Assembly (NCBI RefSeq): GCF_009931435.1
Contig: NZ_CP043414.1
From: Escherichia coli
GTDB taxonomy: Bacteria; Pseudomonadota; Gammaproteobacteria; Enterobacterales; Enterobacteriaceae
Length of the DNA stretch: 64,000 nucleotides
Direction: 5' to 3' (one strand)
Shown here: one piece after another, positions 37,250-61,102 of the stretch
Layout of the letters: each line of letters begins with the position of its first letter
Numbering within the stretch: the stretch's first letter is position 1
Notes under the pieces: model-generated
What the model was told of the DNA's origin: nothing
Seen by the model: only the letters and a program-made list of their open reading frames with translations
The model's database searches: none
Position numbers and translations under genes: made by a program

Positions 37250-37972
37250 GTGGCGACACTCTTTATTGCAGATCTTCATCTCTGCGCGGAAGAACCGGCG
37301 ATCACCGCCGGTTTTCTGCGTTTTTTAGCGGGGGAAGCCCGCAAGGCCGACGCACTGTATATTCTTGGCGATCTGTTTGAAGCATGGATTGGCGATGACG
37401 ATCCCAACCCACTCCATCGCCAGATGGCCGCAGCGATCAAAGCGGTATCCGATTCCGGCGTTCCCTGCTATTTCATTCATGGCAACCGTGATTTTCTGCT
37501 CGGCAAACGCTTTGCCCGTGAGAGTGGCATGACGTTATTGCCGGAAGAAAAAGTGCTCGAACTTTATGGTCGTCGGGTGTTGATTATGCATGGCGACACG
37601 CTGTGCACCGATGACATCGGTTATCAGGCATTTCGCGCCAAAGTCCACAAGCCGTGGCTGCAAACGCTATTCCTCGCCCTGCCGTTGTTTGTGCGCAAAC
37701 GCATTGCTGCGCGAATGCGAGCGAACAGCAAAGAAGCAAACAGCAGTAAATCGCTGGCGATCATGGACGTTAACCAAAACGCGGTGGTTAGTACGATGGA
37801 AAAACATCAGGTGCAATGGTTGATTCACGGGCATACCCATCGCCCGGCGGTCCATGAACTTATCGCCAATCAGCAACCTGCTTTTCGCGTGGTACTCGGT
37901 GCCTGGCATACAGAAGGGTCGATGGTGAAAGTCACGGCGGATGACGTTGAGCTGATCCATTTTCCATTTTAA
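37250..37972 (+). CDS. lpxH: UDP-2,3-diacylglucosamine hydrolase
   Basis: 240 aa metallophosphoesterase, [11 protein letters not shown]. Confidence 0.95.
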
Positions 37973-38088
37973 AAACCCGCAACCTTGCTGATTTCATAGC
38001 CACGCAACCGTTTTCCTTGCTCTCTTTCCGTGCTATTCTCTGTGCCCTCTAAAGCCGAGAGTTGTGCACCACAGGAGTTTTAAGACGC

Positions 38089-38598
38089 ATGTCTTCCCGC
38101 AATAATCCGGCGCGTGTCGCCATCGTGATGGGGTCCAAAAGCGACTGGGCTACCATGCAGTTCGCCGCCGAAATCTTCGAAATCCTGAATGTCCCGCACC
38201 ACGTTGAAGTGGTTTCTGCTCACCGCACCCCCGATAAACTGTTCAGCTTCGCCGAAAGTGCCGAAGAGAACGGTTATCAGGTGATTATTGCGGGCGCAGG
38301 CGGCGCAGCGCACCTGCCGGGCATGATTGCCGCCAAAACGCTGGTGCCAGTGCTGGGTGTGCCAGTACAGAGCGCCGCACTGAGCGGTGTCGATAGCCTC
38401 TACTCCATCGTACAAATGCCGCGCGGCATTCCGGTGGGTACGCTGGCGATTGGTAAAGCTGGCGCGGCAAACGCGGCGTTACTGGCAGCACAAATTCTTG
38501 CGACTCATGATAAAGAACTGCACCAGCGTCTGAATGACTGGCGCAAAGCACAAACTGATGAAGTGCTGGAAAACCCGGACCCGCGAGGTGCGGCATGA
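38089..38598 (+). CDS. purE: N5-carboxyaminoimidazole ribonucleotide mutase
   Basis: 169 aa from [20 protein letters not shown]. Confidence 0.95.
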
Positions 38599-39662
38599 AA
38601 CAGGTTTGCGTCCTCGGTAACGGGCAGTTAGGCCGTATGTTGCGCCAGGCAGGCGAACCGTTAGGCATTGCTGTCTGGCCGGTCGGGCTGGACGCTGAAC
38701 CGGCGGCGGTGCCCTTTCAACAAAGCGTGATTACCGCTGAGATCGAACGCTGGCCGGAAACCGCATTAACGCGCGAGTTGGCACGCCATCCAGCCTTTGT
38801 GAACCGCGATGTGTTCCCAATTATTGCCGACCGTCTGACTCAGAAGCAGCTTTTCGACAAGCTTCACCTGCCGACTGCACCGTGGCAGTTACTTGCCGAT
38901 CGCAGTGAGTGGCCTGCGGTGTTTGATCGTTTAGGTGAACTGGCGATTGTTAAGCGTCGTACTGGTGGCTATGACGGTCGCGGTCAATGGCGTTTACGCG
39001 CCGATGAAACCGCACAGTTACCGACTGAATGCTACGGCGAATGTATTGTCGAGCAGGGCATTAACTTCTCTGGCGAAGTATCGCTGGTTGGCGCGCGCGG
39101 CTTTGATGGCAGCACTGTGTTTTATCCGCTGACGCATAACCTGCATCAGGACGGTATTTTGCGCACCAGCGTCGCTTTCCCGCAGGCCAACGCACAGCAG
39201 CAGGCGCAGGCCGAAGAGATGCTGTCGGCGATTATGCAGGATCTGGGCTATGTGGGCGTGATGGCGATGGAGTGTTTTATCACTCCGCAAGGTCTGCTGA
39301 TCAACGAACTGGCTCCGCGTGTGCATAACAGTGGTCACTGGACACAAAACGGTGCCAGCATCAGCCAGTTTGAGCTGCATCTGCGGGCGATTACCGATCT
39401 GCCGTTACCGCAACCGGTGGTAAATAGCCCGTCAGTGATGATCAACCTGATTGGTAGCGATGTGAACTATGACTGGCTGAAACTGCCGCTGGTGCATCTG
39501 CACTGGTACGACAAAGAAGTGCGTCCGGGCCGTAAGGTGGGGCATCTGAATTTGACCGACAGCGACACATCGCGTCTGACCGCAACGCTGGAAGCCTTAA
39601 TCCCGCTGCTGCCGCCAGAGTATGCCAGCGGCGTGATGTGGGCGCAGAATAAGTTCAGTTAA
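38595..39662 (+). CDS. purK: N5-carboxyaminoimidazole ribonucleotide synthase
   Basis: 355 aa ATP-grasp protein, overlaps purE stop. Confidence 0.95.
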
Positions 39663-39679
39663 CCTGGTGCTCATATTCT

Positions 39680-39980
39680 TGCCGGATGCAGCGTGAACGC
39701 CTTATCCGGCCTACTAATCCGGTACCCATTGTAGGCCTGATAAGACGCGTCAAGCATCGCATCAGGCATGGTGCGCCGATTACCGGATGCGGCGTGAACG
39801 CCTTATCCGGCCTACTAATCCGGTACCCATTGTAGGCCTGATAAGACGCGTCAAGCGTCGCATCAGGCATGGTGCGCCGATTACCGGATGCGGCGTGAAC
39901 GCCTTATCCTACTACCAATCCGGTACCCATTGTAGGCCTGATAAGACGCGTCAAGCGTCGCATCAGGCATGGTGCGCCAT
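39680..39980. repeat. BIME cluster: three tandem copies of a roughly 100-bp unit made of REP palindromes
   Basis: Repeated gccggatgcggcgtgaacgccttatccggcctac and tgtaggcctgataagacgcgtcaagcgtcgcatcaggc units between purK and ybcF. Confidence 0.9.
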
Positions 39981-39996
39981 ATGCTGGATGCTCCCA

Positions 39997-40893
39997 TCAC
40001 GACAGCGAAATACAGGTCCCCGCTTCGCCCGCCAGCGTCTCTTCAATCCGCGATAACGCCCCAATCCACGCAGGTTTACCACGGCTTCTGACATAGCCAC
40101 TCACCGCCGTTACCTTCGGTCCCATCGCCCCATCGGCTTTGGCAAATGGCGCTAACTCATCCGGTGTGGCATGGCGAATGGCGCGTTGCTGCGGCGTTCC
40201 CCAGTTTTCATAAACCGCGTCAGCATCGGTGAGGATCACCAGTCCATCGGCATTAATCTGCTCGGCAAGCAACGCCGCGGCGAGATCTTTATCAATCACC
40301 GCTTCACTCCCTGCTCCGTTATCCATCACCGGAACACCGCCGCCGCCACTGCAAATCACCACATGCCCCTCTTTGAGCAACAACTCGATGGCTTCGCTGT
40401 CGAGAATTTTACGAGGCTGGGGAGATGCCACCACCCGGCGTAAATATTTGCCATCACGCTTCATTTTCCAGCCGTAAGCCGTTTCCAGTGCCTCTTGTTC
40501 TTCTGGCTGATAAACCGGGCCGATAAACTTCTCTGGCTGCAAAAACGCCGGATCATCAGACGAAACCTCAATGCGCGTCAGCACCGTCGTGACAGGCGGC
40601 ATCTGCGGCTGTGCGCTCAAGCTCTGCGCCAGCATATAGCCAATCATCCCCTGGCTTTCCGCCACCAGCACATCCAGTGGATACGGTTCGACCTCTTTCC
40701 ACGCCAGATTCTGTAACGCCAACAATCCCACCTGCGGCCCGTTGCCGTGAACAATCGCCAGCCGATAAGTACGCGCCAGGCGCGCCAGCGCGGGAACAGC
40801 ACTGGCAATGTTGCGATATTGATTTTCTGCCGTCAGCGCCTCACCGCGCTGGAGTAAGGCATTGCCCCCAAGAGCTACAACCAGTGTTTTCAT
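39997..40893 (-). CDS. ybcF: Carbamate kinase-like protein
   Basis: 298 aa, carbamate kinase family. Confidence 0.85.
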
Positions 40894-41715: not shown

Positions 41716-42975
41716 TCAACCAATACCCATGCTTTCAGCCAGTGCTTCCAGCGCCTGTTCAAAGCACGCCAGCGGTGCCCGCACAGTGCCTGCACCAATC
41801 TGCCCGATCCCCGCTTCTTTATGGGCGATACCGGTATTGATGAGCGGCGTAATGCCGGTTTCTACCACGCGACGAATATCCAGCCCCAGACACGCGCCCT
41901 GGAAATCCCAGCCAGGGATCTGCAACTGCATATTGCGCTCAAGGAAGATTTCTGCCATCTCTTCAGATACTGCTCTGGCTGCTTCCATACCACCCGCACC
42001 GACAAAGCGTGTTACGCCAGGGGCGGCGATCATTGCCGCACCACCGATACCAAAGGTTTCGGTAATCGCGCTATCGCCCATATCCGGGTTCGCCTGCTCC
42101 TGCGAGAAGCCGGTGAAAAATAGACCTTGGGGAGTGTTTACAGGCGCAGTAAACCAGCGTTCGCCCAGCCCGCTGACCCGAATCCCGAACATATTGCCGT
42201 TGCGGGTCATAGCCGTGACGATGCTGCCTGCGCGGATCATCGCACCAGCATCCATCGCCGCCTTGCAGTAAGCCATCGCGAGGTTAAGGAAGAACTGATC
42301 GGTCACGCTGAGGAAATCCATCACTTCCGCGATGTGTTGTTTATCATGATCGAGGCGAGCAATTTGTGGGGCCAGCGCACGCATTAACAGTGCTGAGGAA
42401 GCAATATTGCGCTGATGGAACTCATCGCCCATGGTAATGCCCTGCGCCATCATCGCGGTGAGATCGATACCGCGCTCCATGCGCCCCAGCGCCGCGCTTA
42501 ATACTGGCATTAACACATCGCGCATCCAGCGATGGCGAGTCAGGACATCTTCGCCGTAAGCGCCAAAACGCATCACTTTGCCGATACCTTCGTTGAGGTT
42601 GCAGTACGCCCGATTGCCGTCGGTCACGTTCTCGACCACCAGCATCGGCATACTGGCAGAAGTAATGCCGCCCATTGGCCCGACAGCATTCACATGGTGA
42701 CAAGGAATGAAGTTCACTTCCCCCTGCTCCAGCATTGCCAGTGCCTGCGCTTCATCTTTCGCCCAGCCTTCAAACAGACATGCGCCCACACATGCCCCTT
42801 TCATGGGTCCGGTCATCTCCTGCCAGCGCATCGGCGGCCCGGCGTGAAGCAGTGTTTTACCCTGATTTAATTCATTAATGAGTGAAGAAGCCGGTTGCAC
42901 ATCCAGCCAGTGTGGACGAGCGCGACGAATTTGTTCGATAACCGCAGCATTGGCTTGCGCCACTGATGTAAACAT
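41716..42975 (-). CDS. ylbE: DUF1116-family protein YlbE (intact)
   Basis: 419 aa uninterrupted ORF. Confidence 0.8.
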
Positions 42976-42984
42976 GGGAACCCC

Positions 42985-44651
42985 TTATTGCAAACGTTCT
43001 AATAAACGAGCCAGTTTTTTATTGCCGCCAGCGACTGGCGACCATTGGTAATGCACAACCGGTTTGTTGGCGCTTTGTAGCTCCAGCGCAAAGCTGCGTA
43101 ATCCGATGTTAATCACGGCGACGTTTTCCAGTAATGACGGTGTATGTTGCTGTGCGGCAGGCGAGAGCGGATGAATTAACGCCGCCGCCAGCAAGGTGGC
43201 TTCCGGTAGCGAACTCACTACCGCGATCCCCGCATCTTCCAGCGTGGCGATTTGCTGCGAGCGGCATTGCGGTCACGTTCAGTGCCTGTCACCGTGGCAA
43301 TGGCATACAGTGGTTGATTGTCTGGACGCGCGGCACAGGCTTTTTGCCAGGCGCTTACCAGCGGGGCAGCAGGATCGGTGGTCGCACCGAAGCCAATCAC
43401 CACATCAAGCAGCAATACGCGCACTTGCGGTTTAGCGCCGAGATCGGCAATTAACTGGTTGCGTAAGGTTGGGTCAATCATCGGATGGGGACGCCCGACG
43501 GTGTAGAAATCATCGCCGAGGTCAATAATCTGGTGACCATCGGCGTCGAGCATCATGCCGTGATGATGGGTATCGTCGGCTACCACGCCAAGATGCGCGG
43601 CAAGTAATCCCGCCGCTTCGGCGGCTAACGTACCGCCGGTATACAAGCCGCAAATAAATCCGCTGCTGGCAGGCGCTATCGCGTTACGTCGCGCCGTAAC
43701 GCGTGAAAGCAGGCAAGCCAGGCGCGCAGCCTCATCCAGCGAGGAGGCAAACCAGACATTCTCGTCGCGGGCCACCGCCGGGATATAACCTAAAAACAGC
43801 GCCACCGTCGGTTTGCCGGTTGCTTTCATGGCATTAACAATTTTCAGACGCACAGCTTCGGCAGGCGGTTTTGAAACAAACGCCAGCACTTCGCTTTTCT
43901 CGTCTACACTGAGCATTTCCAGCGCCGTTAGCGCACTGATGCCGCCCACTTCACGGCTGAGATCGCGCCCGCCAAGACCAATCGCGTGAGTAATTCCCTC
44001 ACCTGCCAGCGCAATCTGTGAGCACAGCTCCTGAATCCCGGTACCGGAAGCGCCAATGACGCCAATGTTGCCTTCCGGCATCACGTTAGCAAAAGCCAGC
44101 GGCGTGGCGGCAATCATCGATGTACCGCAGTCCGGCCCCATCACCAGCAAACCTTTTTCCCGCGCGCGGGTTTTAAGTTGGATTTCATCTTCCAGCGTGA
44201 CGTTATCGGAGAACATCATCACGTTGAGGTTGCGATCCAGCGCCTGGTTCGCCAGTTCCGCCGCATACTCGCCAGCCACTGAAATCAGCGCCAGATTGGC
44301 ATTGGGTAATTTCTGACTGGCACTGTCCCAGCGACGTACCTGCGTCAACGCCTGGCTGCTGCCCGTTCCCTGCGCCAGTTGCTTTAGCGCCTCTTCAAGC
44401 TGCTGCATAATCGCCTGCGCGATCCCCGCATCCGCAGCTTCGCTACGAATTGCCACGCAAATATCGTTCGGCGTGGCGTGATTAAAATCGTCATGCCAGA
44501 AACCTGTAGTCTCTAGTAACGCTTTATTGGCGGGCGTACCCATCATTACGGAAACATCATCAACATTTTCTGATTCGCTGAGTTTTCGTGAAATAATCAT
44601 TAAACTGACTGAATCCTGAAAACACCCTTTTTTAATAAAGGCGTGGATCAT
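42985..44651 (-). pseudogene. fdrA: fdrA (acyl-CoA synthetase-like protein) split by a -1 frameshift near 43271
   Basis: ORFs 43218-44651 and 42985-43218 are consecutive frames; adding one G in the GG run at 43271-43272 restores a 555-aa protein. Confidence 0.75.
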
Positions 44652-44967
44652 AACAACTCCTTAAAAATTGCACCCATGGCAATTGCACGAGCAGTGTTAA
44701 TGTGGCGATTACGGTATCGATGACAACGAGTAAATAAGGTGATGAATATCACACAGACATTATTAACAAAAGAATTCAAATAACCGCCAGACTATTACAC
44801 GTTATTTTTTAATAAGCATAGTTGTTTTAAAAACCAGGTTAAAAGCGAGCGGATTATCAAATAAATTCTAACTATATTTTTTTGCCTGTCTGGATCACAT
44901 AATCCAGATATTTTCCCTGTATGTTAATTGCAGTCATGCTTCACACCATCGTTAAAAAGGAAGACAG

Positions 44968-46017
44968 ATGAAAATCAGTCGGGAAACACTCCACCAGTTA
45001 ATTGAGAATAAACTCTGTCAGGCTGGGTTAAAACGTGAGCACGCTGCAACCGTGGCTGAAGTATTGGTTTACGCCGATGCCAGAGGGATCCACTCTCATG
45101 GCGCGGTGCGCGTTGAATACTACGCAGAGCGCATATCAAAAGGCGGCACCAACCGCGAACCAGAGTTTCGTCTTGAAGAAACCGGACCGTGCTCGGCAAT
45201 TTTACATGCCGACAATGCCGCCGGACAGGTCGCGGCAAAAATGGGTATGGAACATGCCATTAAAACAGCACAACAACATGGCGTGGCGGTGGTTGGCATC
45301 AGCCGAATGGGTCACAGCGGCGCAATCTCTTATTTTGTGCAGCAGGCAGCCCGCGCCGGATTGATTGGCATTTCGATGTGCCAGTCCGATCCAATGGTGG
45401 TGCCGTTTGGCGGCGCGGAAATTTACTACGGCACTAACCCACTGGCCTTTGCCGCGCCGGGAGAAGGCGACGAGATTCTTACTTTTGATATGGCGACTAC
45501 CGTACAGGCATGGGGAAAAGTGCTCGACGCCCGCTCGCGCAATATGTCTATCCCGGATACCTGGGCGGTCGATAAAAACGGTGCACCAACAACCGATCCC
45601 TTCGCGGTTAACGCCCTGCTCCCGGCTGCCGGACCGAAAGGTTATGGCCTGATGATGATGATTGACGTCCTCTCAGGCGTCTTACTCGGCTTACCGTTCG
45701 GGCGTCAGGTCAGTTCGATGTATGACGATTTACACGCCGGACGTAATTTGGGGCAATTACATGTAGTTATTAATCCGAACTTTTTCTCCTCCAGCGAATT
45801 ATTCCGTCAACATCTTAGCCAGACCATGCGCGAATTAAATGCCATTACCCCCGCGCCCGGTTTTAACCAGGTTTATTATCCCGGACAGGATCAGGATATT
45901 AAACAACACAAAACCGCCGTCGAAGGCATCGAAATTGTTGATGATATTTACCAGTATTTAATTTCCGACGCGCTTTATAACACGTCATACGAAACGAAAA
46001 ATCCCTTTGCGCAATAA
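44968..46017 (+). CDS. allD: Ureidoglycolate dehydrogenase
   Basis: 349 aa, Ldh_2 family. Confidence 0.9.
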   Translation: MKISRETLHQLIENKLCQAGLKREHAATVAEVLVYADARGIHSHGAVRVEYYAERISKGGTNREPEFRLEETGPCSAILHADNAAGQVAAKMGMEHAIKTAQQHGVAVVGISRMGHSGAISYFVQQAARAGLIGISMCQSDPMVVPFGGAEIYYGTNPLAFAAPGEGDEILTFDMATTVQAWGKVLDARSRNMSIPDTWAVDKNGAPTTDPFAVNALLPAAGPKGYGLMMMIDVLSGVLLGLPFGRQVSSMYDDLHAGRNLGQLHVVINPNFFSSSELFRQHLSQTMRELNAITPAPGFNQVYYPGQDQDIKQHKTAVEGIEIVDDIYQYLISDALYNTSYETKNPFAQ

Positions 46018-46038
46018 TTGTTGAGACAGGACTTTCTT

Positions 46039-47274
46039 ATGATTACACATTTCCGTCAAGCTATAGAAGAAACGCTGCCCTGGCTTTCCTCTTTTGGCGC
46101 TGACCCAGCGGGTGGGATGACCCGTTTACTTTATTCGCCGGAGTGGCTGGAAACCCAGCAGCAATTTAAAAAAAGAATGGCAGCAAGTGGGCTGGAAACA
46201 CGTTTCGATGAAGTGGGGAATTTATACGGCCGCCTGAACGGCAGCGAATACCCTCAGGAAGTGATTCTGAGCGGTTCGCATATTGATACCGTGGTTAACG
46301 GCGGTAACCTCGACGGACAATTCGGCGCACTGGCGGCGTGGCTGGCGATTGACTGGCTGAAAACGCAATACGGCGCGCCGCTGCGAACGGTCGAAGTGGT
46401 GGCAATGGCGGAAGAAGAAGGCAGCCGCTTCCCGTATGTCTTCTGGGGCAGTAAAAATATCTTTGGGCTGGCGAATCCTGACGACGTGCGGAATATCTGT
46501 GATGCCAAAGGAAATAGTTTTGTCGATGCAATGAAGGCTTGCGGATTTACTCTGCCGAACGCCCCACTAACTCCGCGCCTGGACATCAAAGCCTTTGTCG
46601 AACTGCATATCGAACAGGGTTGTGTGCTGGAAAGTAATGGTCAGTCAATTGGCGTGGTGAATGCGATTGTCGGGCAACGTCGCTACACGGTGACGCTGAA
46701 CGGCGAATCAAACCATGCAGGCACCACGCCGATGGGTTATCGTCGTGATACGGTTTACGCTTTCAGTCGCATTTGCCATCAGTCAGTTGAGAAAGCGAAA
46801 AAGATGGGCGATCCGCTGGTGCTGACCTTTGGCAAGGTGGAGCCGCGCCCGAATACGGTGAATGTAGTGCCGGGTAAAACCACGTTCACTATTGATTGTC
46901 GTCATACCGACACTGCCGTGTTGCGCGATTTTACCCAACAGTTAGAAAACGACATGCGGGCGATTTGCGATGAAATGGACATTGGTATTGATATCGATTT
47001 ATGGATGGACGAAGAACCCGTGCCGATGAACAAGGAGCTTGTCGTCACCCTGACAGAATTGTGTGAAAGCGAAAAACTGAATTACCGGGTAATGCACAGT
47101 GGTGCCGGGCACGACGCACAAATTTTCGCGCCTCGCGTGCCGACCTGCATGATTTTCATTCCCAGCATCAACGGGATCAGCCATAACCCGGCGGAACGCA
47201 CTAATATTAACGACCTTGCCGAAGGGGTCAAAACGTTGGCACTCATGCTTTATCAACTTGCCTGGCAGAAATAA
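46039..47274 (+). CDS. allC: Allantoate amidohydrolase
   Basis: 411 aa M20 peptidase family, from MITHFRQAIEETL. Confidence 0.9.
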   Translation: MITHFRQAIEETLPWLSSFGADPAGGMTRLLYSPEWLETQQQFKKRMAASGLETRFDEVGNLYGRLNGSEYPQEVILSGSHIDTVVNGGNLDGQFGALAAWLAIDWLKTQYGAPLRTVEVVAMAEEEGSRFPYVFWGSKNIFGLANPDDVRNICDAKGNSFVDAMKACGFTLPNAPLTPRLDIKAFVELHIEQGCVLESNGQSIGVVNAIVGQRRYTVTLNGESNHAGTTPMGYRRDTVYAFSRICHQSVEKAKKMGDPLVLTFGKVEPRPNTVNVVPGKTTFTIDCRHTDTAVLRDFTQQLENDMRAICDEMDIGIDIDLWMDEEPVPMNKELVVTLTELCESEKLNYRVMHSGAGHDAQIFAPRVPTCMIFIPSINGISHNPAERTNINDLAEGVKTLALMLYQLAWQK

Positions 47275-47284
47275 GGAGTCATAA

Positions 47285-48070
47285 ATGGGATATTTAAATA
47301 ACGTCACCGGTTACCGCGATGATTTACTGGCTAACCGTGCGATTGTTAAACACGGTAATTTCGCGCTGCTAACCCCGGACGGTCTGGTAAAAAATATTAT
47401 TCCGGGCTTTGAAAATTGTGACGCGACAATCCTCTCCACGCCAAAGCTGGGGGCCTCTTTTGTTGATTATCTGGTCACACTGCATCAAAACGGCGGCAAC
47501 CAACAGGGCTTCGGTGGTGAAGGAATTGAAACGTTCCTGTATGTGATCTCTGGAAATATCACTGCCAAAGCCGAAGGGAAAACATTTACCTTAAGCGAAG
47601 GTGGTTATCTTTATTGCCCGCCAGGCTCCTTAATGACTTTTGTTAACGCCCAGGCCGAAGACAGCCAAATCTTTTTATATAAGCGTCGCTATGTTCCGGT
47701 AGAAGGTCATGCGCCGTGGCTGGTTTCTGGCAATGCCAGCGAACTGGAACGCATTCATTATGAAGGCATGGACGATGTTATTCTGCTGGATTTTCTGCCC
47801 AAAGAGTTAGGTTTTGATATGAACATGCATATCCTCTCTTTTGCGCCAGGTGCCAGCCACGGTTATATCGAAACTCACGTCCAGGAACACGGTGCCTATA
47901 TTCTTTCCGGTCAGGGGGTTTATAACCTCGACAATAACTGGATCCCGGTGAAAAAAGGCGATTACATCTTTATGGGCGCTTATTCCTTACAGGCCGGTTA
48001 TGGCGTAGGGCGTGGTGAAGCGTTTAGTTATATTTACTCGAAAGATTGTAACCGCGACGTTGAGATTTAA
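47285..48070 (+). CDS. allE: Ureidoglycine aminohydrolase (cupin)
   Basis: 261 aa bicupin ORF. Confidence 0.85.
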   Translation: MGYLNNVTGYRDDLLANRAIVKHGNFALLTPDGLVKNIIPGFENCDATILSTPKLGASFVDYLVTLHQNGGNQQGFGGEGIETFLYVISGNITAKAEGKTFTLSEGGYLYCPPGSLMTFVNAQAEDSQIFLYKRRYVPVEGHAPWLVSGNASELERIHYEGMDDVILLDFLPKELGFDMNMHILSFAPGASHGYIETHVQEHGAYILSGQGVYNLDNNWIPVKKGDYIFMGAYSLQAGYGVGRGEAFSYIYSKDCNRDVEI

Positions 48071-48199
48071 GTCATACCACACGCCTGATTATTTTTAGCT
48101 ATGTTGGATTTTGCCACGGTTTATACCGTGGCTTTTTTTGTAGTCAATTCAGGTAAAAAAAAGATGCGATATAAATCGCATCCGCTTTAAAGGTAAGAG

Positions 48200-49345
48200 T
48201 CAGTTTTTAATTCCCTGACCTATTTTAATGGCGCAGGCAATATTTCGCGCACAGTTGAAGAGATTGGTTTCACCGCTTGCGAGCACTTCGGCTAAAGGTG
48301 CCAGACGTGGCAAAATGCTGAATACCGCGTCAATGCCGTACTGGTGCACCACTTCCACGCCATCACCCAATACGCCAGCAATCCCAATCACCGGTACATT
48401 AAACTGCTTCGCCACCGATGCCACACCCAGCGGCGCTTTACCGCCTGCCGTTTGCGAGTCGATGCGCCCTTCCCCGGTGATCACCAGTGCTGCACCCTGC
48501 ACCGCCTGCGCAAGATTGACCGCATTCAACACAATCTCAATACCCGGTTTAATATCCGCATTGAGGAATACCGCCGCCGCAATGCCCATGCCTCCGGCAG
48601 CACCGCCGCCCGCCATCTGGCAGACGTTGATTTCAGTTAGCTGTTGTAAAACACGGGCGTAATTTTGCAGCCCCTGTTCCAGCTCTTCGACCATTTCTGG
48701 CGTTGCCCCTTTTTGCGGGCCAAACACCGCCGCCGCGCCGCGTGCCCCTACTAACGGATTATCTACATCGCACGCTACTTCAATATGGCAGTTCGCCAGG
48801 CGCGGATCGCACTCCTCCATCTCAATGCTTGCCACGCGCGCTAAATTGCCACCGTTAGCCGCCAGCGCCTGACCGTCGGCATCAAGGAAACTCGCACCAA
48901 GCGCCTGCGCCATGCCCATACCGCCGTCGACCGTCGCGCTACCACCAATGCCGAGAATAATATGGCGAATACCGTTATCCAGCGCATGACGAATCAGCTC
49001 GCCAGTGCCATAACTTGACGCCAGCAACGGATTACGCTTCTCAGGCGCGACCAGCATCAGGCCACTTGCCGCCGCCATCTCAATCACCGCCGTTTTCCCG
49101 TCGCCGGTAAGGCCATAAAAAGCATTCACTTTTTCGCCCATCGGTCCACAGACTTCAAGTGTTACGATTTTGCCGCCCGTCGCTGCGACCATCGCCTCCA
49201 CCGTCCCTTCGCCGCCATCCGCTATCGGCAAACAGATATAGTGCGCATCGGGAAAGAGGGTCGAAAACCCGGCTTTAATTGCCTGACAACATTTTTCTGC
49301 ACTTAAGCTCTCTTTAAACGAGTCTGGCGCAATGACAATCTTCAT
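48200..49345 (-). CDS. glxK: Glycerate 2-kinase
   Basis: 381 aa from [14 protein letters not shown]. Confidence 0.9.
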
Positions 49346-49366
49346 TATCAATCCTTTTTCAAAAAA

Positions 49367-50668
49367 TTATTCGATACGTTCCCACGGAATAAGATTATCC
49401 ATAAGAACAGCCAGTAAAATTCCGACCAGTAAGCCGTTACTGAGCAGAGGGCGAAGCGTTAATGGAAGGTCTTGCAGATACACAGGCGGTAATGCCATTA
49501 AAAATATGCCGACAAATAACGGCAATGCGAGTCGATAAATATTGCGAGCAGTAAATGTTATTTGTTGGCTAAATACCAGCGCGGAAAAGAGTAAAGGCAG
49601 ATAAGAAACTAGCATGACCGCGCTACTCACCGGTAAGGGGATACTACAAAACAGTCGCGTGAGTGCCGGAACCAGTGCCACCAGCAGGCAAATAACGCTG
49701 CCATAAATAAACGAACGCCGCGTGTAATCGCCAGTCTGGGTTAATAAACCAATGGATGAAACAAACGGTGAAAATGGAATTACCGCCAGCGGCACGGTTA
49801 TCAGCGTCATAAATCCGGTCGCCACAAAGCTGCGACGATAACGCGTATTCCCCGCGCCCTGTTGCGGATAAAAAACATCCGTGCCACGAATCGCACCGTA
49901 GGTATTGCTGATATTTACCAGACCTGTAATCACCGCCGTCAGAATAATCCCCGGCAACAAAGCACCGCCACTGCCGAGCGGGAACCACTGCCAGTGCAAC
50001 TCACCGGAAAGCGAGTGCGAAGAAGGAAAGCAAAAGTACCACAACAACCAGCCGGTTATCGTACCGACCAGCAGGCCATAACGGGCAAAACGTTGCGGCA
50101 GGAAGATAATCATCGCCAGTACCAGGCACATCACCGCCACCGAGAGCGCGAACGGCGGTAACTGAATTTTAAAATTTGGGTCGGCTATGCCAAACGGCAG
50201 GCCGAGCATACCTTTGAAAAAGATAGTGGTCAGCTGCGCGCCCAGCATCAACATAAACAAGACCATCACAGACGGCGTAAATAACCGCGCCAGGCGATGA
50301 CCTAATCCGCTAAAACCAATCAACATCGTCAGCACGCCAGAAATCGCAATCCCTACCGCCAGACTGGTAGCGATATCGTTGATCGGGGTCCCGCGCGATG
50401 CTTCGCCAAGGGTAATAGTAAGGATGGTTCCCCACCACAGGCCGCCCGGACCTTCCATAATAGCGCGACGATGGCCGCAGAACGCCTGAGCGAAACAGGC
50501 TAGCGCGGTAGCAAGAAAAGCATATTGCGTGAGCGTAAGCAGGCTACTTTGCGGCAACTGAAAAGCCGAAAGTAGCGTAGGAGGAACCACAACCGTGTTA
50601 CAAAAAATAAAGAAAAACCACTGAAATCCTGATAACAGGCTTTCACGGCTCACTGCAAAATTGAACAT
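49367..50668 (-). CDS. ybbY: NCS2-family putative purine permease YbbY
   Basis: About 433 aa polytopic membrane protein. Confidence 0.8.
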   Translation of the reverse strand: MFNFAVSRESLLSGFQWFFFIFCNTVVVPPTLLSAFQLPQSSLLTLTQYAFLATALACFAQAFCGHRRAIMEGPGGLWWGTILTITLGEASRGTPINDIATSLAVGIAISGVLTMLIGFSGLGHRLARLFTPSVMVLFMLMLGAQLTTIFFKGMLGLPFGIADPNFKIQLPPFALSVAVMCLVLAMIIFLPQRFARYGLLVGTITGWLLWYFCFPSSHSLSGELHWQWFPLGSGGALLPGIILTAVITGLVNISNTYGAIRGTDVFYPQQGAGNTRYRRSFVATGFMTLITVPLAVIPFSPFVSSIGLLTQTGDYTRRSFIYGSVICLLVALVPALTRLFCSIPLPVSSAVMLVSYLPLLFSALVFSQQITFTARNIYRLALPLFVGIFLMALPPVYLQDLPLTLRPLLSNGLLVGILLAVLMDNLIPWERIE

Positions 50669-50724
50669 AAACACACCTTAACCGGAGAATGCCCGCCGCA
50701 AGGACGGGCATTGCAGGGGCCAGA

Positions 50725-52086
50725 TTACTGCTGATGTTTAAGGATAAATTGACCTTTCGGCGCAACAGGGAAACCCTGTTCGATGTCGTAAATCACATCA
50801 CCACGTAAGAGGGTTTTCGTGATACGCGCGCCAATGGTACGGCCAACATACGGGCTGACTTTGTGGCGATATTCCAGATCGTCATTGGTAAGAACATAGC
50901 TGCTATTCGGCTGAATGAAGACGAAGTCGGCATCTTTTCCTGGGGCGATCCGGCCTTTTTGCTGCAAACCGAAAATATCTGCTGCGTTAGTTGCCATTAA
51001 TTTGCCGAACATCGGCAGAGACATACCACGTTTCTGTACTGCTTCATCGAACATCACGTCCATGCAGCTTTGCAGACCGGCGATACCGCCCCATGCTTTC
51101 ATGATGTTGCCTGCTTTCATTTCCGGCGGGCATGGAGAGTGGTCGGAAACCAGGCAGTCGATTTCACCGTTAAACAGTTTTTCCCACATGCCTTTCTGGT
51201 TTTCCAGATCGCGGATCGGCGGTGAACACTTCGCCAGAGTACCGATTTCTTCGAACTGATCGGTATCCAGTACAAAGTAATGCGGGCAGGATTCACAGGT
51301 AACGTCCTGGCCTTCCTGACGCGCACGAGTCACCTCTTCAACACCTTCCGGGCTGCTGATGTGGCAAACGTGCAGACGGCAACCGGCGACTTTCGCCAGG
51401 TACAGTACGCGGCGAATCGCTTCCACTTCGGTAAACACCGGACGCGAAGCCACATAGTCATGAGCGGTTACGCGACCTTCGCGCTTCGCTTCTTCTCCCA
51501 GTTCGTCACAGATCAGCGCATTTTCGCAGTGCACCAGCACTGGCTGACCCAGTTCGCCCAGCTTCTGCGCACCTTTGAAGAACTGCCAGTCATTGACGTC
51601 ACGGAAGTCGTTGTCGATACCGCGATCGCCACAGGTCGCAACGAAGCATTTGAAGCCGACAACGCCCACTTCATCCAGCTCATGCAGACGGTCGATGTTG
51701 TAAGACACCAGGCCACCGAGTTGCGCCGCATCGATAGTCAGCTTGCCTTTAGCGGCATCAAACTTCAGTTCAATCGATGCGCGGTCAACCGTTGCAGGCA
51801 GCTGGTTGAGCGGCATTTCGATCATGGTGGTGATACCCCCTTTTGCCGCTGCGCGAGTACCCGTTTCATAACCTTCCCAGTGGCTACGACCCGGTTCAGA
51901 AATATGGGTGTGCGCATCAACCATGCCTGGCGAAACCACCAGACCAGACGCATCCATAACTTCTTTTGCATCGCCCAGATCCTGACCGATAGCAGCAATT
52001 TTTCCGCCTTTAACGGCGATATCTACAACGCGAGCTTCGTTTTCTAAAATAACGGTGCCGTTTTTAATGATTAAATCAAAAGACAT
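50725..52086 (-). CDS. allB: Allantoinase
   Basis: 453 aa from [14 protein letters not shown]; amidohydrolase motifs. Confidence 0.95.
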
Positions 52087-52146
52087 AACAAACTCCTTGT
52101 AAAATACAGATTGGTTTTTTAACTCAATGTTCAATATCGGGATTAA

Positions 52147-53601
52147 TTAACCTGTGACTTTTTGTTCTCCTGTTTTTTCTGCTGCAGTACGTTTCTTTAA
52201 TAAGGCGTAGGCCGCAAAGGCGACAATAACGCCGACAAACCATGAAACGCGTGATAAAGGCTCCATGAACGGAATAAATTTACCACCGAGAGATAAAATA
52301 ACGGCGACCAAAGTTACTGAGAACGCGGTAAGGTTAAAGCCGTTATCGTAATATTTGAAATCCCCTGCTGCGGTATACAGTTCATCAAGATTAATTTGTC
52401 CGCGCATCACCACAAAATAATGCGCCATCATCACACCAATTACTGGACCCAGCATTCCGCCGATAATATCGAGGAACAGATAAATGCTGTCCTGATTTTC
52501 CATTAATTTCCACGGACAGATCAGCAAACTGATAATACTGGCAATCAGTACGCCGTTTTTATAGGTCAGTTTCGTCGGTGCAATAGCGGCTATCTGATAA
52601 CCAGCCGGAATAATATTACCGGTGGCGTTAGTGGAGATAGTCGTCATCAGAATAACCAGTACCGCAAAGAACGAGGCAAACAGGCTATCCCAACGCTGAA
52701 CAATATCCAGCACGTTCCAGGTGTCAGCGCCGTAGTGAATACTGGCTCCGGCAATAATACATACCCCGGCGACCGCAAACAGAATATAGGCCACAACTAA
52801 ACCCAGCGTTTGCCCCAGCGCCTGCTCACGAAACGAGTGGGCGTTTTGCGTAAAGTCGGATGCGCTCACCGCCGGTGCCGCCCAGACCGCAACTACCGCG
52901 TTAATCACCACCAGGAACAGGAAGCCACCGTTTTCTGCTTTCTGAATACCGCTCGGAATGTAGTCAAAGATTGGACCGATCCCGACCAGCGAAATCGCCC
53001 AAATCGCCATACCGCCGAAGACAACATAGATACACGGGTTAAGAATGGCGGTGAATTTATTTAAAACTTTGCCACCACCGAAACCGATTCCGACGTTCAC
53101 CAGCCAGAAGAGTAAGAAAGTGATTAAGCCCGGTAGAGAAAGCCCTAACAGGGTAAAATCACCACCGAGAGTTAAAAATCCCGGCCAGATTTTGCCAATC
53201 AGGATCAAGCAGGCCAGCGATCCGGCGTAACATTGCAGGCCAAACCACATAATGGCAGCAATCCCGCCTCTTAATAATCCGGGAAACAGTGCACCACGTA
53301 CGCCATAAGAAGCACGCAGGATCATGGCAAATGGTACGCCGTATTTACTGCCCGCAGCACCGTTCAATACCATTACCGCAGCAATAAAAAAGGCGCTAAG
53401 AATAATGGCCAGCATAATACTAAAGGTAGACAAGCCGAGAATAAAAAAGCCGCCGACCATCACATAATTGGGAACGTTATGAACCGAACCCATCCATAAG
53501 GTAAAATAGTTAAATGTTTTCCAGGTCCGCTGGCTTTGCGTTTTCGGCAATAGATCTTCGCTATAGCCGCGTTGCTGGAATAGTTTTCTCTGATGTTCCA
53601 T
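52147..53601 (-). CDS. ybbW: Allantoin permease (NCS1 family)
   Basis: 484 aa polytopic transporter. Confidence 0.9.
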   Translation of the reverse strand: MEHQRKLFQQRGYSEDLLPKTQSQRTWKTFNYFTLWMGSVHNVPNYVMVGGFFILGLSTFSIMLAIILSAFFIAAVMVLNGAAGSKYGVPFAMILRASYGVRGALFPGLLRGGIAAIMWFGLQCYAGSLACLILIGKIWPGFLTLGGDFTLLGLSLPGLITFLLFWLVNVGIGFGGGKVLNKFTAILNPCIYVVFGGMAIWAISLVGIGPIFDYIPSGIQKAENGGFLFLVVINAVVAVWAAPAVSASDFTQNAHSFREQALGQTLGLVVAYILFAVAGVCIIAGASIHYGADTWNVLDIVQRWDSLFASFFAVLVILMTTISTNATGNIIPAGYQIAAIAPTKLTYKNGVLIASIISLLICPWKLMENQDSIYLFLDIIGGMLGPVIGVMMAHYFVVMRGQINLDELYTAAGDFKYYDNGFNLTAFSVTLVAVILSLGGKFIPFMEPLSRVSWFVGVIVAFAAYALLKKRTAAEKTGEQKVTG

Positions 53602-53770
53602 AAATCCCTCTTAATTTCACGTATCGAATAACGCTGTTTTTAATCTAGCTATGAGGAACAAATAAAATAAAAATATTATTTTTAATACTGAAGCAACATC
53701 TTTGGCTGCTTTCTTTTTTAATATTGCTGGCCGATTCATTTTCTGATATCGGCCATTTTTATTGCGGGTA

Positions 53771-54649
53771 TCAGGCCAGTTTATGGTTAGCCATTAATTC
53801 CAGCGCCTGCACTAACGCAGAGTGATCCAACTGGCTGCCACCGTTTGCCGCACAGGTATTAAATAACTCCTGGCAGGTCGCGGTGTTTGGCAGGTTCAGC
53901 GCCAGTGCTTTCGCACTTTGCAGTGCCAGGTTGAGATCTTTCTGGTGCAGCGCAATTTTAAAACCTGGATTAAAGGTGCGTTTAATCATGCGCTCACCGT
54001 GAACTTCCAGAATACGTGAGGAAGCAAAGCCGCCCATCAGCGCCTGCCGCACCCGTACCGGATCCGCTCCGGCTTTTGAAGCAAACAGCAGGGCTTCAGA
54101 AACCGCTTCAATATTGAGCGCCACGATAATCTGATTTGCCACTTTGCAGGTCTGGCCGTCGCCGTTACCGCCCACGAGGGTGATATTTTTACCGAGCAAT
54201 TCAAACAGCGGTTTAACACGTTCAAATACCGCTTCGTCGCCGCCAACCATAATCGACAACGTCCCTTCACGCGCGCCGATTTCACCGCCGGAGACGGGCG
54301 CATCGAGATAATCGCCGCCCAGTTCATTCACCTGACGAGCGAAACGCTTAGTTTCAATCGGGGAAATGGAGCTCATATCAACAATGGTTTTGCCCTTCAG
54401 TGAGGCTTTGGTACAACCATTTTCACCAAACAGAACTTCTTCAACCTGTGGCGTATCCGGCACCATAATAAAAATGATGTCCGATGCTTCCGTTACCTGG
54501 CGCGCAGTTTCAACACTGACGGCACCCAGTGACAGTAATTCATCAACAACCGGACCAATGGTTGTGACATGCAGTTGATGACCGGCACGCGCCAGATTAA
54601 TGGCCATCGGTGTACCCATAATGCCTAAGCCAATAAATCCCAGTTTCAT
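53771..54649 (-). CDS. glxR: Tartronate semialdehyde reductase
   Basis: 292 aa, MKLGFIGLGIMG NAD-binding motif. Confidence 0.95.
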   Translation of the reverse strand: MKLGFIGLGIMGTPMAINLARAGHQLHVTTIGPVVDELLSLGAVSVETARQVTEASDIIFIMVPDTPQVEEVLFGENGCTKASLKGKTIVDMSSISPIETKRFARQVNELGGDYLDAPVSGGEIGAREGTLSIMVGGDEAVFERVKPLFELLGKNITLVGGNGDGQTCKVANQIIVALNIEAVSEALLFASKAGADPVRVRQALMGGFASSRILEVHGERMIKRTFNPGFKIALHQKDLNLALQSAKALALNLPNTATCQELFNTCAANGGSQLDHSALVQALELMANHKLA

Positions 54650-54748
54650 AATTAACCTCTTTTAAATTTCGCTTTTCCTGAATTCAGACAACACGATCCC
54701 CTGCCAACTTAGCGGCCTAAAAAAGCATTGCCTGAACAGCGTTACGTT

Positions 54749-55525
54749 TTAACGGTACGGATCCATCCAGTGTAAACCGGCTTCCGTGGTGGTTTGGGGT
54801 TTATATTCACACCCAACCCAACCGTTGTAGTCAGAATTTTCAATTACCGTAAAGAGATACTCATAATTAATTTCTCCGGTTCCCGGTTCGCCGCGATGCG
54901 GATTATCGGCAATTTGCAGGTGACCAATTTTATCGGCCCATTGAGTCATAGTGTTGGTTAATTCACCTTCCATCCGCTGCATATGATAAATGTCATACTG
55001 AATTTTCAAATTGCAGCAACCAACATCATCAATCAATTTCAGCGCCTGTTGAGTTCCGGTGAGATAGAAACCAGGAATATCAAAATGGTTAATAGGTTCA
55101 ATCAGTAATAAAATATCTTCTTTCATCAGCATATTCGCGGCATAACGCAGGTTTTCTACAAGCGTTGCGTGAATCTGTTCACTGCTGAAACCAGCCGGCG
55201 TTTTACCGACCAGACAGTTAATTTTTTTATTACCCAGCGCACGAGCATAACGAATCGCTGCTGCTACGCCATCCCGAAACTCTTCTTCACGGCCAGGAAT
55301 ACAAGCAATACCGCGCTCCCCCGCCGCCCAGTCACCCGCCGGTAAATTGTGCAGAGTATGTTCGAGTTTATTACTCGCCAGCACCTGTTTTAATTCTTCA
55401 ATGTCGTAGTCATAAGGAAACATAAATTCAACGCCGCGAAAACCACACTGCGCTGCTTTCTCAAAACGGGCGAGAAAATCATATTCACCAAATAACATCG
55501 ATAAATTCGCAGAGAAACGTAACAT
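54749..55525 (-). CDS. hyi: Hydroxypyruvate isomerase
   Basis: 258 aa TIM-barrel ORF. Confidence 0.95.
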   Translation of the reverse strand: MLRFSANLSMLFGEYDFLARFEKAAQCGFRGVEFMFPYDYDIEELKQVLASNKLEHTLHNLPAGDWAAGERGIACIPGREEEFRDGVAAAIRYARALGNKKINCLVGKTPAGFSSEQIHATLVENLRYAANMLMKEDILLLIEPINHFDIPGFYLTGTQQALKLIDDVGCCNLKIQYDIYHMQRMEGELTNTMTQWADKIGHLQIADNPHRGEPGTGEINYEYLFTVIENSDYNGWVGCEYKPQTTTEAGLHWMDPYR

Positions 55526-55537
55526 TATTTATCTCCC

Positions 55538-57319
55538 TTATTCATAGTGCATGAAGCAGGTTTCAGTCGGTGCGTCCGCTGCGTTATCGGCGATATCTTC
55601 AAATTCCATCACATTATCGAGTTCGCTGCCCATTGAAATATTGGTTACGCGCTCGAGAATGATTTCCACTACCACAGGTACACGGTATTGATTCATTAAT
55701 GCTTTCGCCTGTTCAAATGCCGGTGCAATATCTTCCGGTTTGAAGACCCGAATAGCTTTACAACCTAAACCTTCCGCTACTTTTACGTGGTCGACGCCGT
55801 AACCGTTCACTTCGCTGGAGTTAATATTTTCGAATGCGAGCTGTACGCAGTAATCCATATCAAACGCGCGCTGCGACTGGCGAATCAGACCCAGATAGGC
55901 GTTATTGACCAGTACATGGATGTACGGAATGTTGAACTGTGCGCCAACGGCTAATTCTTCAATCAGGAACTGGAAGTCGAAGTCACCGGAAATCGCCACC
56001 ACATTGCGCTCTGGATCAGCGGCACACACGCCCAGCGCCGCCGGAATGGTCCAGCCCAACGGGCCTGCCTGCCCACAGTTGATCCAGTGGCGGTCTTTAA
56101 AGACATGCAGCATTTGTGCCGCAGCGATTTGTGACAGACCAATGGTGGTGACATAACAAACATCGCGACCAAAGGCTTTGTTCATCTCTTCATACACGCG
56201 CTGCGGTTTCACCGGCACATTGTCGAAGTGGGTTTTGCGCAGCAAAGTGCGTTTGCGCTGCTGGCAGTCGGCGACCCATTCTTTACGACACGGCAGACGA
56301 CCCGCTTTTTGCATCTCCTGCGCCACTTCAACCAGTAAAGTCAGGGCAGCTTTAGCATCAGAGACAATCCCCAGATCCGGGCACAGCACGCGGCCAATTT
56401 GCGTCGGCTCAATATCGATATGGACGATTTTGCGCCCTTCGGTGTATTTCTCTACCGAACCGGTATGACGATTGGCGAAACGGTTACCGATACCAAACAC
56501 CATATCGGACGCCAGCAGCGTTGCATTACCGTAACGATGTGCGGTTTGCAGCCCCACCATCCCGGCCATCAGTTCGTGGTCATCCGGAATACAGCCCCAG
56601 CCCATCAGCGTTGGGATCACCGGAACGCTGGTCAGTTCAGCAAACTGTTGTAACAGTGCAGCTGCGTCAGCATTGATGACTCCGCCCCCGGCAACAATTA
56701 CCGGACGTTCAGCCTGGATTAACATTTCGACCGCTTTTTCAATCTGCATACGGCTGGCCGCTGGTTTGTAGACCGGCAACGGTTCGTACATGTCAGGATC
56801 AAACTCGATTTCCGCCACCTGAACGTCGAACGGTAAATCCACCAGTACCGGACCCGGACGACCAGAACGCATCAGGTGAAATGCCTGTTGCAGCACACGA
56901 GGCACGAGCGCCGCTTCACGTACTGTAACCGCCATTTTACTTACCGGCTTGGCGATAGCTTCGATATCAACAGCCTGGAAATCTTCTTTATGCAGACGAG
57001 CACGCGGTGCCTGACCAGTGATGCACAAAATAGGAATGGAATCAGCAGAAGCGGAATAGAGCGCGGTGATCATGTCCGTGCCCGCAGGACCGGAAGTCCC
57101 CAGACATACGCCGATATTCCCTGCCGTTGCGCGGGTATAACCTTCCGCCATGTGCGAAGCACCTTCCACATGACGCGCCAGAATGTGACGAATACCGCCG
57201 TGCTTACGCATCGCTGAGTAGAACGGATTGATTGCAGCTCCCGGAACGCCGAAGGCGGTGGTGATACCTTCTTTCTCCAGCACATACATTGCCGCGTCAA
57301 CGGCTCTCATTTTTGCCAT
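55538..57319 (-). CDS. gcl: Glyoxylate carboligase
   Basis: 593 aa from [18 protein letters not shown]; TPP enzyme. Confidence 0.95.
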
Positions 57320-57408
57320 TTTATTCCTACCTCTATTAATTGGAAAAATTTTCCAACTTTCAAATTTTGTCAAAAAAACCCGCTCCGCAGAGCGGGATGC
57401 GACAGACA

Positions 57409-58224
57409 CTATGGATGTGCTTTCAGTCCCAACGCCGTGCTGATATCGCGGGCGGTGTCTCTGACCAGCTCACCCTGACTGACAAAACGATCTTCTGTCA
57501 GTCTTGAAGAAGGCCCGGAGATGGAGATAGCGGCAACAACGCTACCTACATCATCGTAAATTGCTGAAGCTATGCAATTCAGACCTACAACATGCTCTTC
57601 TTTATCTACGGTATAGCCCAGTTCACGCGCTTGTTCCAGGTCCTTCAGCAAGGTGGGCATATCCACAAGCGTAGTTGGCGTAAACTGCTGCAAACCGGTT
57701 TGCAGAATGATGCTCATCAACTCCTCTTCCGCCAGCGGATAAAGCAGCGCTTTGCCCGCACCGGAAGCATGCAGCGGCAGACGACTGCCCAGCGGCGCAC
57801 ACATCCTGACCATCGATTTACATTCTAACTGACCAATTAATACTGCTTCATTGCCGTTACGAATCGCGACATTGACCGTTTCGCCGGAAAGTAACATCAG
57901 GCGGCGCATAAATGGCCCAGCGACGGAGAGGACATCGCGGTTATGGATGTACGCCGCACCGACGTTAAAGACACCTAATCCTATATGCCACCAGCCTAAC
58001 TGACTGTCCTGATAGACAAAATCCGCTGCCTGTAAAACCTTCAGCAAGCGAAAGGTCGTGGAGAGCGGCAAATCCAGATTGAGAGAAATATCGCTAACCG
58101 ACGAACTTCCCCCACTTTTTTCCAGATATTGCAGAATCGCAATTCCCCGCTCTAACGCCTGTGCGCCCTTTTGTGCCACAGGCTCCGCCTGTCCTGGCCT
58201 GCCGCGCCGTCTAACTTCCGTCAT
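57409..58224 (-). CDS. allR: IclR-family repressor of the allantoin regulon
   Basis: 271 aa IclR-type ORF. Confidence 0.95.
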
Positions 58225-58301
58225 ACCTACGTTAACTCCGACCTACAAGTGAGCATAAACAATGAACAATTAGTTTATCTTATGCAAGTCGGTTGCAGGC
58301 G

Positions 58302-58784
58302 TCACGCAAAACAGAGTTCCTGTTCAGGAATACTTTCAACATCACAGTTGTCACTGCCGCCGCGATCGATGGTCAGAAAATCGGTGACGCGCTGCCAGGC
58401 GAAAAGTGGGTGATGCCAGACGTTACGATGGTAATTCACTCCCTGTTCACCGTTGGTAATAAACGCCCGCAGGGTTGACAGGTCTGGTTTGTCGTCACCT
58501 AAGGCCACGACCACCACAAACACTTCCCCTTTCATCGGAATAAAGGCCTGAGTGCCCAGCGGATGACGTTCGAGTTCGTGAATGGTCAGCGGCAGATTCG
58601 CCGGTTGCGCGCGGTTAATGCTGATAAGCGTACGGTCTTGCTCAAGAATCTCAACCAGCGCCAAATCGTGGTAACGCTCCACCAGGCCATTGTTAATATG
58701 GAAAAAATCCCGTTGCTGCGTTTCGATTACGTCGCCATAAGCACTAAAGGCTTCCTGACTTAACGGTAATACCTGAAGTTTCAT
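58302..58784 (-). CDS. allA: Ureidoglycolate lyase
   Basis: 160 aa ORF divergent from allS. Confidence 0.95.
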
Positions 58785-59939: not shown

Positions 59940-59992
59940 AAATCAAGTTTCCTTGCGCGTTGGCGCGTAAAATAGCGTGCAAGCTGATTTGA

Positions 59993-61102
<1,110 letters not shown>

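Follow-up and report, generated by a model that had tools for sequence, protein, structure and literature searches.

Among the elements built from REP palindromes, REPINs, which Bertels and Rainey reportedly described in 2011, are dispersed REP doublets that are non-autonomous mobile elements, and they are said to be linked to a single-copy Y1 transposase (RAYT), for which the GTAG foot and the mismatch in the stem are the recognition features. BIMEs are of two kinds: BIME-1 has z1 and y REPs with a long IHF-binding linker, and BIME-2 is formed by z2 and y REPs in inverse orientation with short linkers, in many tandem copies which are conserved within a locus and whose number at that locus differs between strains (PMC3333891). 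REP325 consists of six repeats of Y and Z2 palindromes with a linker (PMC4550694), and in the K-12 genome we find it between yjdM and yjdN with a period of 100 bp and 5.8 copies.

Here we surveyed an array of such palindromes in one window, that is the whole stretch of 64,000 nucleotides of Escherichia coli DNA that was analysed. With a probability of about 0.9 the array is a non-coding BIME-2 of three tandem 101-bp units, each holding a Y and an inverted Z2 REP, in the 3′ intergenic region where the genes purK and ybcF of a divergent E. coli lineage converge. Tandem Repeats Finder reported a single tandem repeat at 39682-39978 (period 101, 3.0 copies, 96% matches, 0% indels, score 552), and an independent repeat search returned three in-register copies at 39679-39779, 39780-39880 and 39880-39980, with pairwise identities of 97.0% for units 1 and 2, 94.1% for units 2 and 3 and 91.2% for units 1 and 3. 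The full extent of the array is 39681-39991, including an extra linker and a 9-nt Y stub beyond the third unit. The REP census of the 64-kb window counted 8 REPs in total, and six of them fall in this array, which is therefore far beyond chance.

The upstream convergent gene is purK (38595-39662, plus strand, 355 aa, stop TAA at 39660-39662), a 5-(carboxyamino)imidazole ribonucleotide synthase whose product matches the Pfam families ATP-grasp (3.4e-62) and PurK_C. The downstream convergent gene is the carbamate kinase-like ybcF (39997-40893, minus strand, 298 aa, stop TGA given by the reverse complement of 39997-39999), whose product matches AA_kinase (4.8e-26), and in every E. coli record fetched the homologues are annotated as purK and ybcF (carbamate kinase). 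The gap between the plus-strand and the minus-strand gene is 334 bp, most of which is taken up by the array, and the array is wholly extragenic. A spacer of 18 nt (39663-39680), the same as the left flank in strains 2020CK-00188 and R32_14_1F, separates the purK stop from the first REP. At 39997-40002 the usual TAG stop of ybcF has become TCG (Ser) and the following codon, TGA, terminates the frame 5 nt from the Y stub; the protein has 298 aa in the window and in the strains with the two-unit allele, against 297 aa in K-12 and most others.

Each unit is made of a 34-nt Y that ends in CTAC on the plus strand, a 16-nt linker, a 37-nt Z2 that starts with GTAG and a 14-nt linker, with the third Y shortened to 33 nt. 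The array opens with Y1 (39681-39714, minus strand), whose CTAC at 39711-39714 on the plus strand is the GTAG foot on the minus strand; it is 94.1% identical to the REP325 Y, carries the variant GCAGCG (39690 G>A) and has hairpin energies of -16.8/-17.9 kcal/mol. It is followed by the 16-nt linker TAATCCGGTACCCATT between the CTAC and GTAG feet (39715-39730), which is found again at 39816-39831 and as a CAAT variant at 39916-39931. Z2-1 (39731-39767, plus strand, GTAG at 39731-39734) is 94.6% identical to the REP325 Z2 and folds with -14.6/-19.5 kcal/mol; its variant GCATCG (39756 G>A) puts a C.A mismatch in the inner stem. The 14-nt linker ATGGTGCGCCGATT then joins the distal ends of the REPs (39768-39781), with a second copy at 39869-39882 and the variant ATGGTGCGCCATAT at 39969-39982.

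In the second unit, Y2 (39782-39815, minus strand) is canonical (94.1% to the REP325 Y, -18.2/-18.5 kcal/mol), and so is Z2-2 (39832-39868, plus strand, 97.3% to the REP325 Z2, -20.4/-21.3 kcal/mol). In the third, Y3 (39883-39915, minus strand, CCTTATCC-TACTAC) is damaged: its outer stem is shortened by a 1-nt deletion and substitutions, its foot is partly deleted, its identity to the REP325 Y falls to 85.3% and its hairpin energies are -12.8/-11.8 kcal/mol, while Z2-3 (39932-39968, plus strand) is canonical in folding and in comparison with REP325. The array terminates 5 nt before the ybcF stop in the 9-nt stub of a fourth Y, GCTGGATGC, at 39983-39991, a position which reads GCCGGATGC in one-unit alleles. 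The REPs thus alternate in inverted orientation, with plus-strand CTAC feet at 39711, 39812 and 39909 and GTAG feet at 39731, 39832 and 39932.

All six palindromes form interrupted hairpins on either strand, in which an internal loop separates the outer and inner stems, with energies of -12 to -21 kcal/mol (-14.6 to -21.3 when Y3 is set aside) and z values of -2.3 to -7.3 against shuffles. The whole region as RNA folds with -158 kcal/mol (z -7.9) on the plus strand and -158.7 kcal/mol (z -6.1) on the minus strand. An intrinsic terminator was searched on both strands over 39300-40300 and none was found. Among 11 distinct Z2 copies from this locus and REP325, 93% of the cells in the stem alignment are paired and a single pair varies (U:A in 3, C:G in 2, unpaired in 6), and the covariation scores of the stem were equalled by shuffles. 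Two ORFs of 89 aa and 71 aa that run through the repeats were considered for coding potential and rejected: they match no Pfam family and are translated repeats.

The palindromes were typed against the fetched sequence of K-12 REP325, which is published as Y plus Z2. Y1 to Y3 are 94.1, 94.1 and 85.3% identical to the REP325 Y against 67-78% to its Z2, and Z2-1 to Z2-3 are 94.6-97.3% identical to the REP325 Z2 against 76-78% to its Y. At the level of sequence the array is a BIME-2 in every respect by which that class is defined: it is composed of y and z2 REPs which alternate in inverted orientation with GTAG at the palindrome foot, each of the six is an imperfect palindrome with a mismatch or bulge in the stem, the linkers are short (16 and 14 nt) with no long L linker carrying an IHF site, the tandem copies are conserved within the locus (3.0 copies, 91-97% pairwise identity), the location is extragenic within the 334-bp purK-ybcF region, and the number of units varies between strains, from 0 to 5 in complete E. 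coli genomes.

With the BIME-2 family as a whole the array shares the alternating inverted Y and Z2 REPs, the short linkers, the head-to-tail amplification, the extragenic place and the strain-variable copy number, and no substantial difference separates them; the linkers have sequences particular to this locus, a common trait of BIME-2, and damage is seen in one REP out of six. It also has inverted REP pairs in common with REPINs, but those are dispersed single doublets whereas this array is amplified locally in tandem. The class BIME-1 (RIP/RIB, IHF-binding) was tried and rejected, as the array has no Z1 REP with up to 4 errors, no long linker and no IHF consensus; the search for that consensus, WATCAANNNNTTR, covered both strands of 39640-40010 and gave no match.

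A preliminary description had placed three tandem, near-identical 100-bp BIME units, built from REP palindromes, at 39680-39980 between purK and ybcF. The number and near-identity of the units (3.0 copies with 96% matches, 91-97% pairwise) are borne out, as are the palindromes (Y 85-94% and Z2 95-97% identical to the REP325 motifs, in inverted alternation) and the flanking genes, on which ORFs, Pfam and the annotation of homologues agree, and the assignment to BIMEs can be narrowed to BIME-2 under the published definition (PMC3333891). The repeat is near-identical as described, but its exact period is 101 bp; the location is likewise right, but the true extent is 39681-39991 once the last linker and the Y stub are counted.

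The distribution of the array in the species was surveyed by BLAST against 5,426 complete E. coli genomes, with a query in which the last 150 bp of purK were joined to the last 150 bp of ybcF; flanks alone were used because hundreds of REPs elsewhere would interfere. Sixty records were listed at even steps down the ranking, 59 genomes were typed, and the intergenic length was taken as the span minus 300. One unit (about 123-135 bp intergenic) was found in 23 of the 59 genomes, and the K-12 type of about 1.6 units, in which the second Y is internally deleted (about 191-201 bp), in 21; two units (228-233 bp) were present in 7, five units (530 bp) in 5, no REP (149 bp) in 2 and three units (329 bp) in 1. 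A four-unit allele was found separately, outside this sample, so that the states of the locus among complete E. coli genomes are 0, 1, about 1.6, 2, 3, 4 and 5 units. The REP-free allele is carried by 238 of the 5,426 genomes (4.4%), which agrees with 2 of the 59 sampled, and the sample is therefore reasonably representative.

The units at this locus are of two sequence types, which occur in different lineages. The type of the window and of K-12 has a 37-nt Z2 with the loop GTCAA and a linker ending in CCGGTACCCATT; the second type has a 36-nt Z2 (GCGCCAGCATCGC) and the linker CGTTCCGACACCGCCT, and builds the alleles with three units (MS1657), four units (377323_2f) and five units (SaT040). 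In the five-unit array the linker variants CCAACACC and CCGACACC alternate, which suggests duplication as two-unit blocks.

The K-12 MG1655 allele reads Y, Z2, internally deleted Y (GCCGGATGCGGC joined to ACCGGTTGTAGG) and Z2 within a 194-bp intergenic region. It shares the locus, the flanks and the unit type of Y plus 37-nt Z2 with the window, and it differs in having no complete Y/Z2 head-to-head junction and in its right junction; the RefSeq K-12 record has no repeat_region feature at purK-ybcF. In the REP-free allele of AH21G053 (NZ_CP196247.1, 451-604 of the extracted locus) a sequence of 154 bp stands in place of the REPs, with a G/C-rich palindrome, CCCCTCACCCTAACCCTCTCCCCACAGGGGCGAGGGGAC, which we take to resemble the Box C repeat. 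The central part of this allele, about 50 bp, also matches single sites elsewhere in other genomes. A terminator scan of the AH21G053 allele gave one weak match that was no better than shuffles, with a fold z of -1.9, and in the one sequence scanned of the degenerate-remnant allele (2020CK-00188/R32_14_1F type) none was found. The earlier proposal that copy number varies between strains, with a comparison of this locus across E. coli genomes as the check, is upheld by the range of 0-5 units, and the opinion that the array is ordinary for E. coli also stands, as it is an ordinary BIME-2 and the orthologous K-12 locus holds a BIME too.

For the allele of the window itself, the whole array with 60-bp flanks (454 bp) was used as a query against the complete E. 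coli genomes. All the seven top-ranked genomes (N96, 2013C-4282, WL297, 2017-02-2CC, MFDS1022581, MFDS1019527 and RMDEC465) span 353 bp against the 454 bp of the query, which is exactly one unit fewer, and in none of the 5,426 genomes does the unit type of the window occur in three copies. Since that type reaches at most two copies elsewhere, in seven genomes, the third unit is specific to this lineage. The two-unit alleles that were read (RMDEC465, 2013C-4282 and 2017-02-2CC) begin with a canonical unit, and their second unit has a damaged Y almost identical to Y3, the distal Y being CCGACTAC in all three against CCTACTAC in the window, and units 2 and 3 of the window correspond to units 1 and 2 of these strains. 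The three-copy state would thus be explained by one in-register duplication of 101 bp in the two-unit allele. Y2 starts like the distal Y, with A and not G after the linker, and finishes like the proximal one (CCGGCCTAC), as a single in-register exchange or slippage would give.

The first unit has a different affinity. Its substitutions 39690 G>A and 39756 G>A recur in a degenerate remnant of 121 bp in 2020CK-00188 and R32_14_1F, and these two strains match the last 510 bp of purK without a difference, whereas 17 sites over 39242-39649 are different in 2013C-4282. On the right side the first 318 bp after the array are identical to 2013C-4282 (9 differences in 962), and 2020CK-00188 differs on that side at 38 of 1,079 sites. 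Over the region compared, 39153-40319, each matching strain is 96-97% identical on the opposite side of the array. The array therefore sits at a haplotype switch, with the switch point between units 1 and 2.

In RMDEC465 (1784-2016 of the extracted locus) both Z2 copies carry the same private C>G change (AAGAGGCG), which gives a G.G mismatch, and 2013C-4282 and 2017-02-2CC have C in both copies; the shared change looks like homogenisation (gene conversion) between units. These patterns of flanks and units are in line with recombination inside one array and from array to array; one locus is not enough to show a preferred site of crossing over. That the array is such a preferred crossover point between diverged E. 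coli haplotypes, and that its unit number works as a strain-specific dial on 3′-end formation and stability of purEK and ybcF (fdrA-ylbEF-ybcF), is a speculative reading which we hold to be improbable.

No complete E. coli genome exceeds 98.3% identity to the lpxH-purE-purK segment (37250-39662). Over 42000-62000 of the window the identity is 96.4% with typical E. coli and 97.5-98.1% with four strains; by sequence identity the window comes from a lineage that diverges from mainstream E. coli and belongs to this species in the broad sense. The best matches, with at most 98.1-98.3% identity, are a few strains labelled E. coli (2020CK-00188, R32_14_1F, 2013C-4282 and WL297). The junction of the damaged Y3 had no exact match among the species-representative genomes.

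As for the mechanism, we propose that the array is one locus of the genome-wide REP/BIME family, whose copy number would shift when the 101-bp direct repeats recombine or slip in register, and the allele of the window would be the product of one unequal exchange between units of the two-unit allele of its closest relatives. TnpA-REP (RAYT) may assist such changes, as it cleaves and recombines BIMEs in vitro (PMC3333891). Transcripts from either gene would fold into a run of stable hairpins, which may block 3′-to-5′ exonucleases and so protect the 3′ ends of both mRNAs, and may attenuate read-through, partly via Rho. The array would then act as a bidirectional 3′-UTR stabiliser and partial terminator at a locus with no intrinsic terminator, and at the DNA level its Y REPs would be candidate gyrase sites.

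The local role as 3′-UTR stabiliser and terminator is argued by analogy with other REPs, and we consider it on balance probable, by a modest degree. REP325 is a partly Rho-dependent terminator and mRNA stabiliser, about 30% of the gene pairs that converge have a REP, both genes of such pairs are more highly expressed, and 78 REPs lie in known bidirectional terminators; across the genome, REPs showed a large variance and no general lengthening of mRNA half-life (bioRxiv 10.64898/2026.03.23.713779). In the supplements of the same study purK and ybcF appear only in the differential-expression tables. Alleles of the locus run from no REP (238 genomes) to five units and include a damaged REP and degenerate remnants; this argues against a role that is strongly selected and dosage-sensitive. 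Liang, Rudd and Deutscher reportedly described in 2015 that ribosomes stall where a REP lies no more than about 15 nt from a stop codon. Here the first hairpins lie 18 nt past the purK stop and 28 nt past the ybcF stop, and translation-coupled regulation by REPs was set aside for this reason.

A serious alternative, possible though less than probable, is that the array is largely a neutral passenger, a selfish or neutral repeat with no locally selected role whose copy number drifts by recombination and slippage. In favour of it, the locus is extremely polymorphic: units of two types number from 0 to 5, some arrays are degenerate or have internal deletions, and 4.4% of the genomes have an allele with no REP at all. 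The damaged REP in the array of the window and the lack of a covariation signal (11 Z2 copies, one variable pair) can be added. However, a hairpin-forming element is kept in almost every allele, even the degenerate ones, and the published genome-wide data tie REPs of convergent genes to higher expression of both genes; drift would also be compatible with incidental effects on the mRNA.

It is unlikely, though conceivable from what is known of other BIME-2 elements, that the array is a strong gyrase site, which would recruit gyrase for cleavage at the Y REPs and so relieve positive supercoils between the convergent purEK and ybcF. BIME-2 elements contain a significant excess of gyrase cleavage sites, with a preference for y REPs (PMC6379681), and the array holds three Y REPs between convergent genes. 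However, only a subset of BIME-2 elements is cleaved, the signal rises when transcription is blocked and is hence not driven by convergent transcription, and purK and ybcF go unmentioned in the supplementary text of that Topo-seq paper (PMC6379681).

The comparison with REP325 also raises the question of a nucleoid-associated RNA. The likeness is close, with the same alternation of Y and Z2, a period of about 100 bp, REPs that are 94-97% identical (85% for Y3) and Y-linker-Z2 modules that also pass the Rfam gathering score, which for RF02564 (naRNA4) is 59.5 bits. Both complete junctions exceed this score on the minus (ybcF-sense) strand: the module of Y2, linker and Z2-1 at 39734-39812 reaches 75.2 bits (E 4e-13, full model 1-77), and that of Y3, linker and Z2-2 at 39835-39913 reaches 66.4 bits; plus-strand and partial matches in the array stay below threshold. 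The array differs from REP325 in having three units against six, in scoring 66-75 bits against 95-111 bits, in both linkers (42-67% identity) and in its setting, since REP325 lies inside an operon and this array lies between convergent genes, so that either strand can be transcribed into it. The constant linker of REP325 is not shared, the 14-nt linker being 60-67% identical and the 16-nt linker, at 42%, unrelated.

Read-through from ybcF could in principle yield naRNA4-like RNAs of two hairpins, which would bind HU, bridge cruciform DNA and condense the chromosome, as in the original model, whose REP325 architecture the array shares (PMC4550694). We consider this very unlikely here, although two ybcF-sense modules score above the gathering score (75.2 and 66.4 against 59.5 bits), as RF02564 recognises any complete Y/Z2 junction of a BIME-2 and the linker of the array differs from that of REP325 (60-67% identity). 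The senior author of the nucleoid-RNA model is among those who now dispute it (bioRxiv 10.64898/2026.03.23.713779). The same family matches REP325 units with 95-111 bits and the five-unit purK-ybcF allele of SaT040 with 76-82 bits, therefore these matches denote a BIME-2 with at least two units and not a dedicated RNA gene. The K-12 purK-ybcF allele gave nothing at threshold, because it has no complete Y/Z2 head-to-head junction. The naRNA4-like modules at purK-ybcF number 0 to 4 depending on the strain.

It is highly improbable that an assembly error added the third unit to a locus of two. Its unit type is found in three copies in no complete E. coli genome, and each of the seven closest holds two, but unit 1 does not replicate unit 2, its substitutions at 39690 and 39756 are common to the independent 2020CK-00188/R32_14_1F haplotype and continue the haplotype of the left flank, alleles of 3, 4 and 5 units are present in finished genomes, and a repeat of 101 bp is shorter than typical reads.

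As a discovery the array is of little importance, as the K-12 locus holds a BIME too; the BIME-2 class, the Y/Z2 anatomy and the variation of copy number between strains are already known from descriptions that go back to the 1990s, and three copies of this unit type would be a trivial one-step derivative of the two-copy allele of the nearest relatives. The provided data are useful in two ways. In annotation, repeat_region (BIME-2, three units) is the proper feature for this stretch, in place of small ORFs, and the two Rfam naRNA4 matches should be taken as generic BIME-2 junctions, which lend no support to a nucleoid-associated RNA gene. For further studies, the locus offers a natural allelic series (0, 1, 1.6, 2, 3, 4 and 5 units) beside the same convergent gene pair, which can be used for testing the recently proposed dual role of REPs as terminators and stabilisers.

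The only other REP cluster of the 64-kb window, at 61701-61786, comprises one Y/Z2 unit whose 16-nt linker, GGTTAAGTGCAGTTTT, is its own; the stop end of a minus-strand ORF of 718 aa (61803-63959) comes shortly after it.
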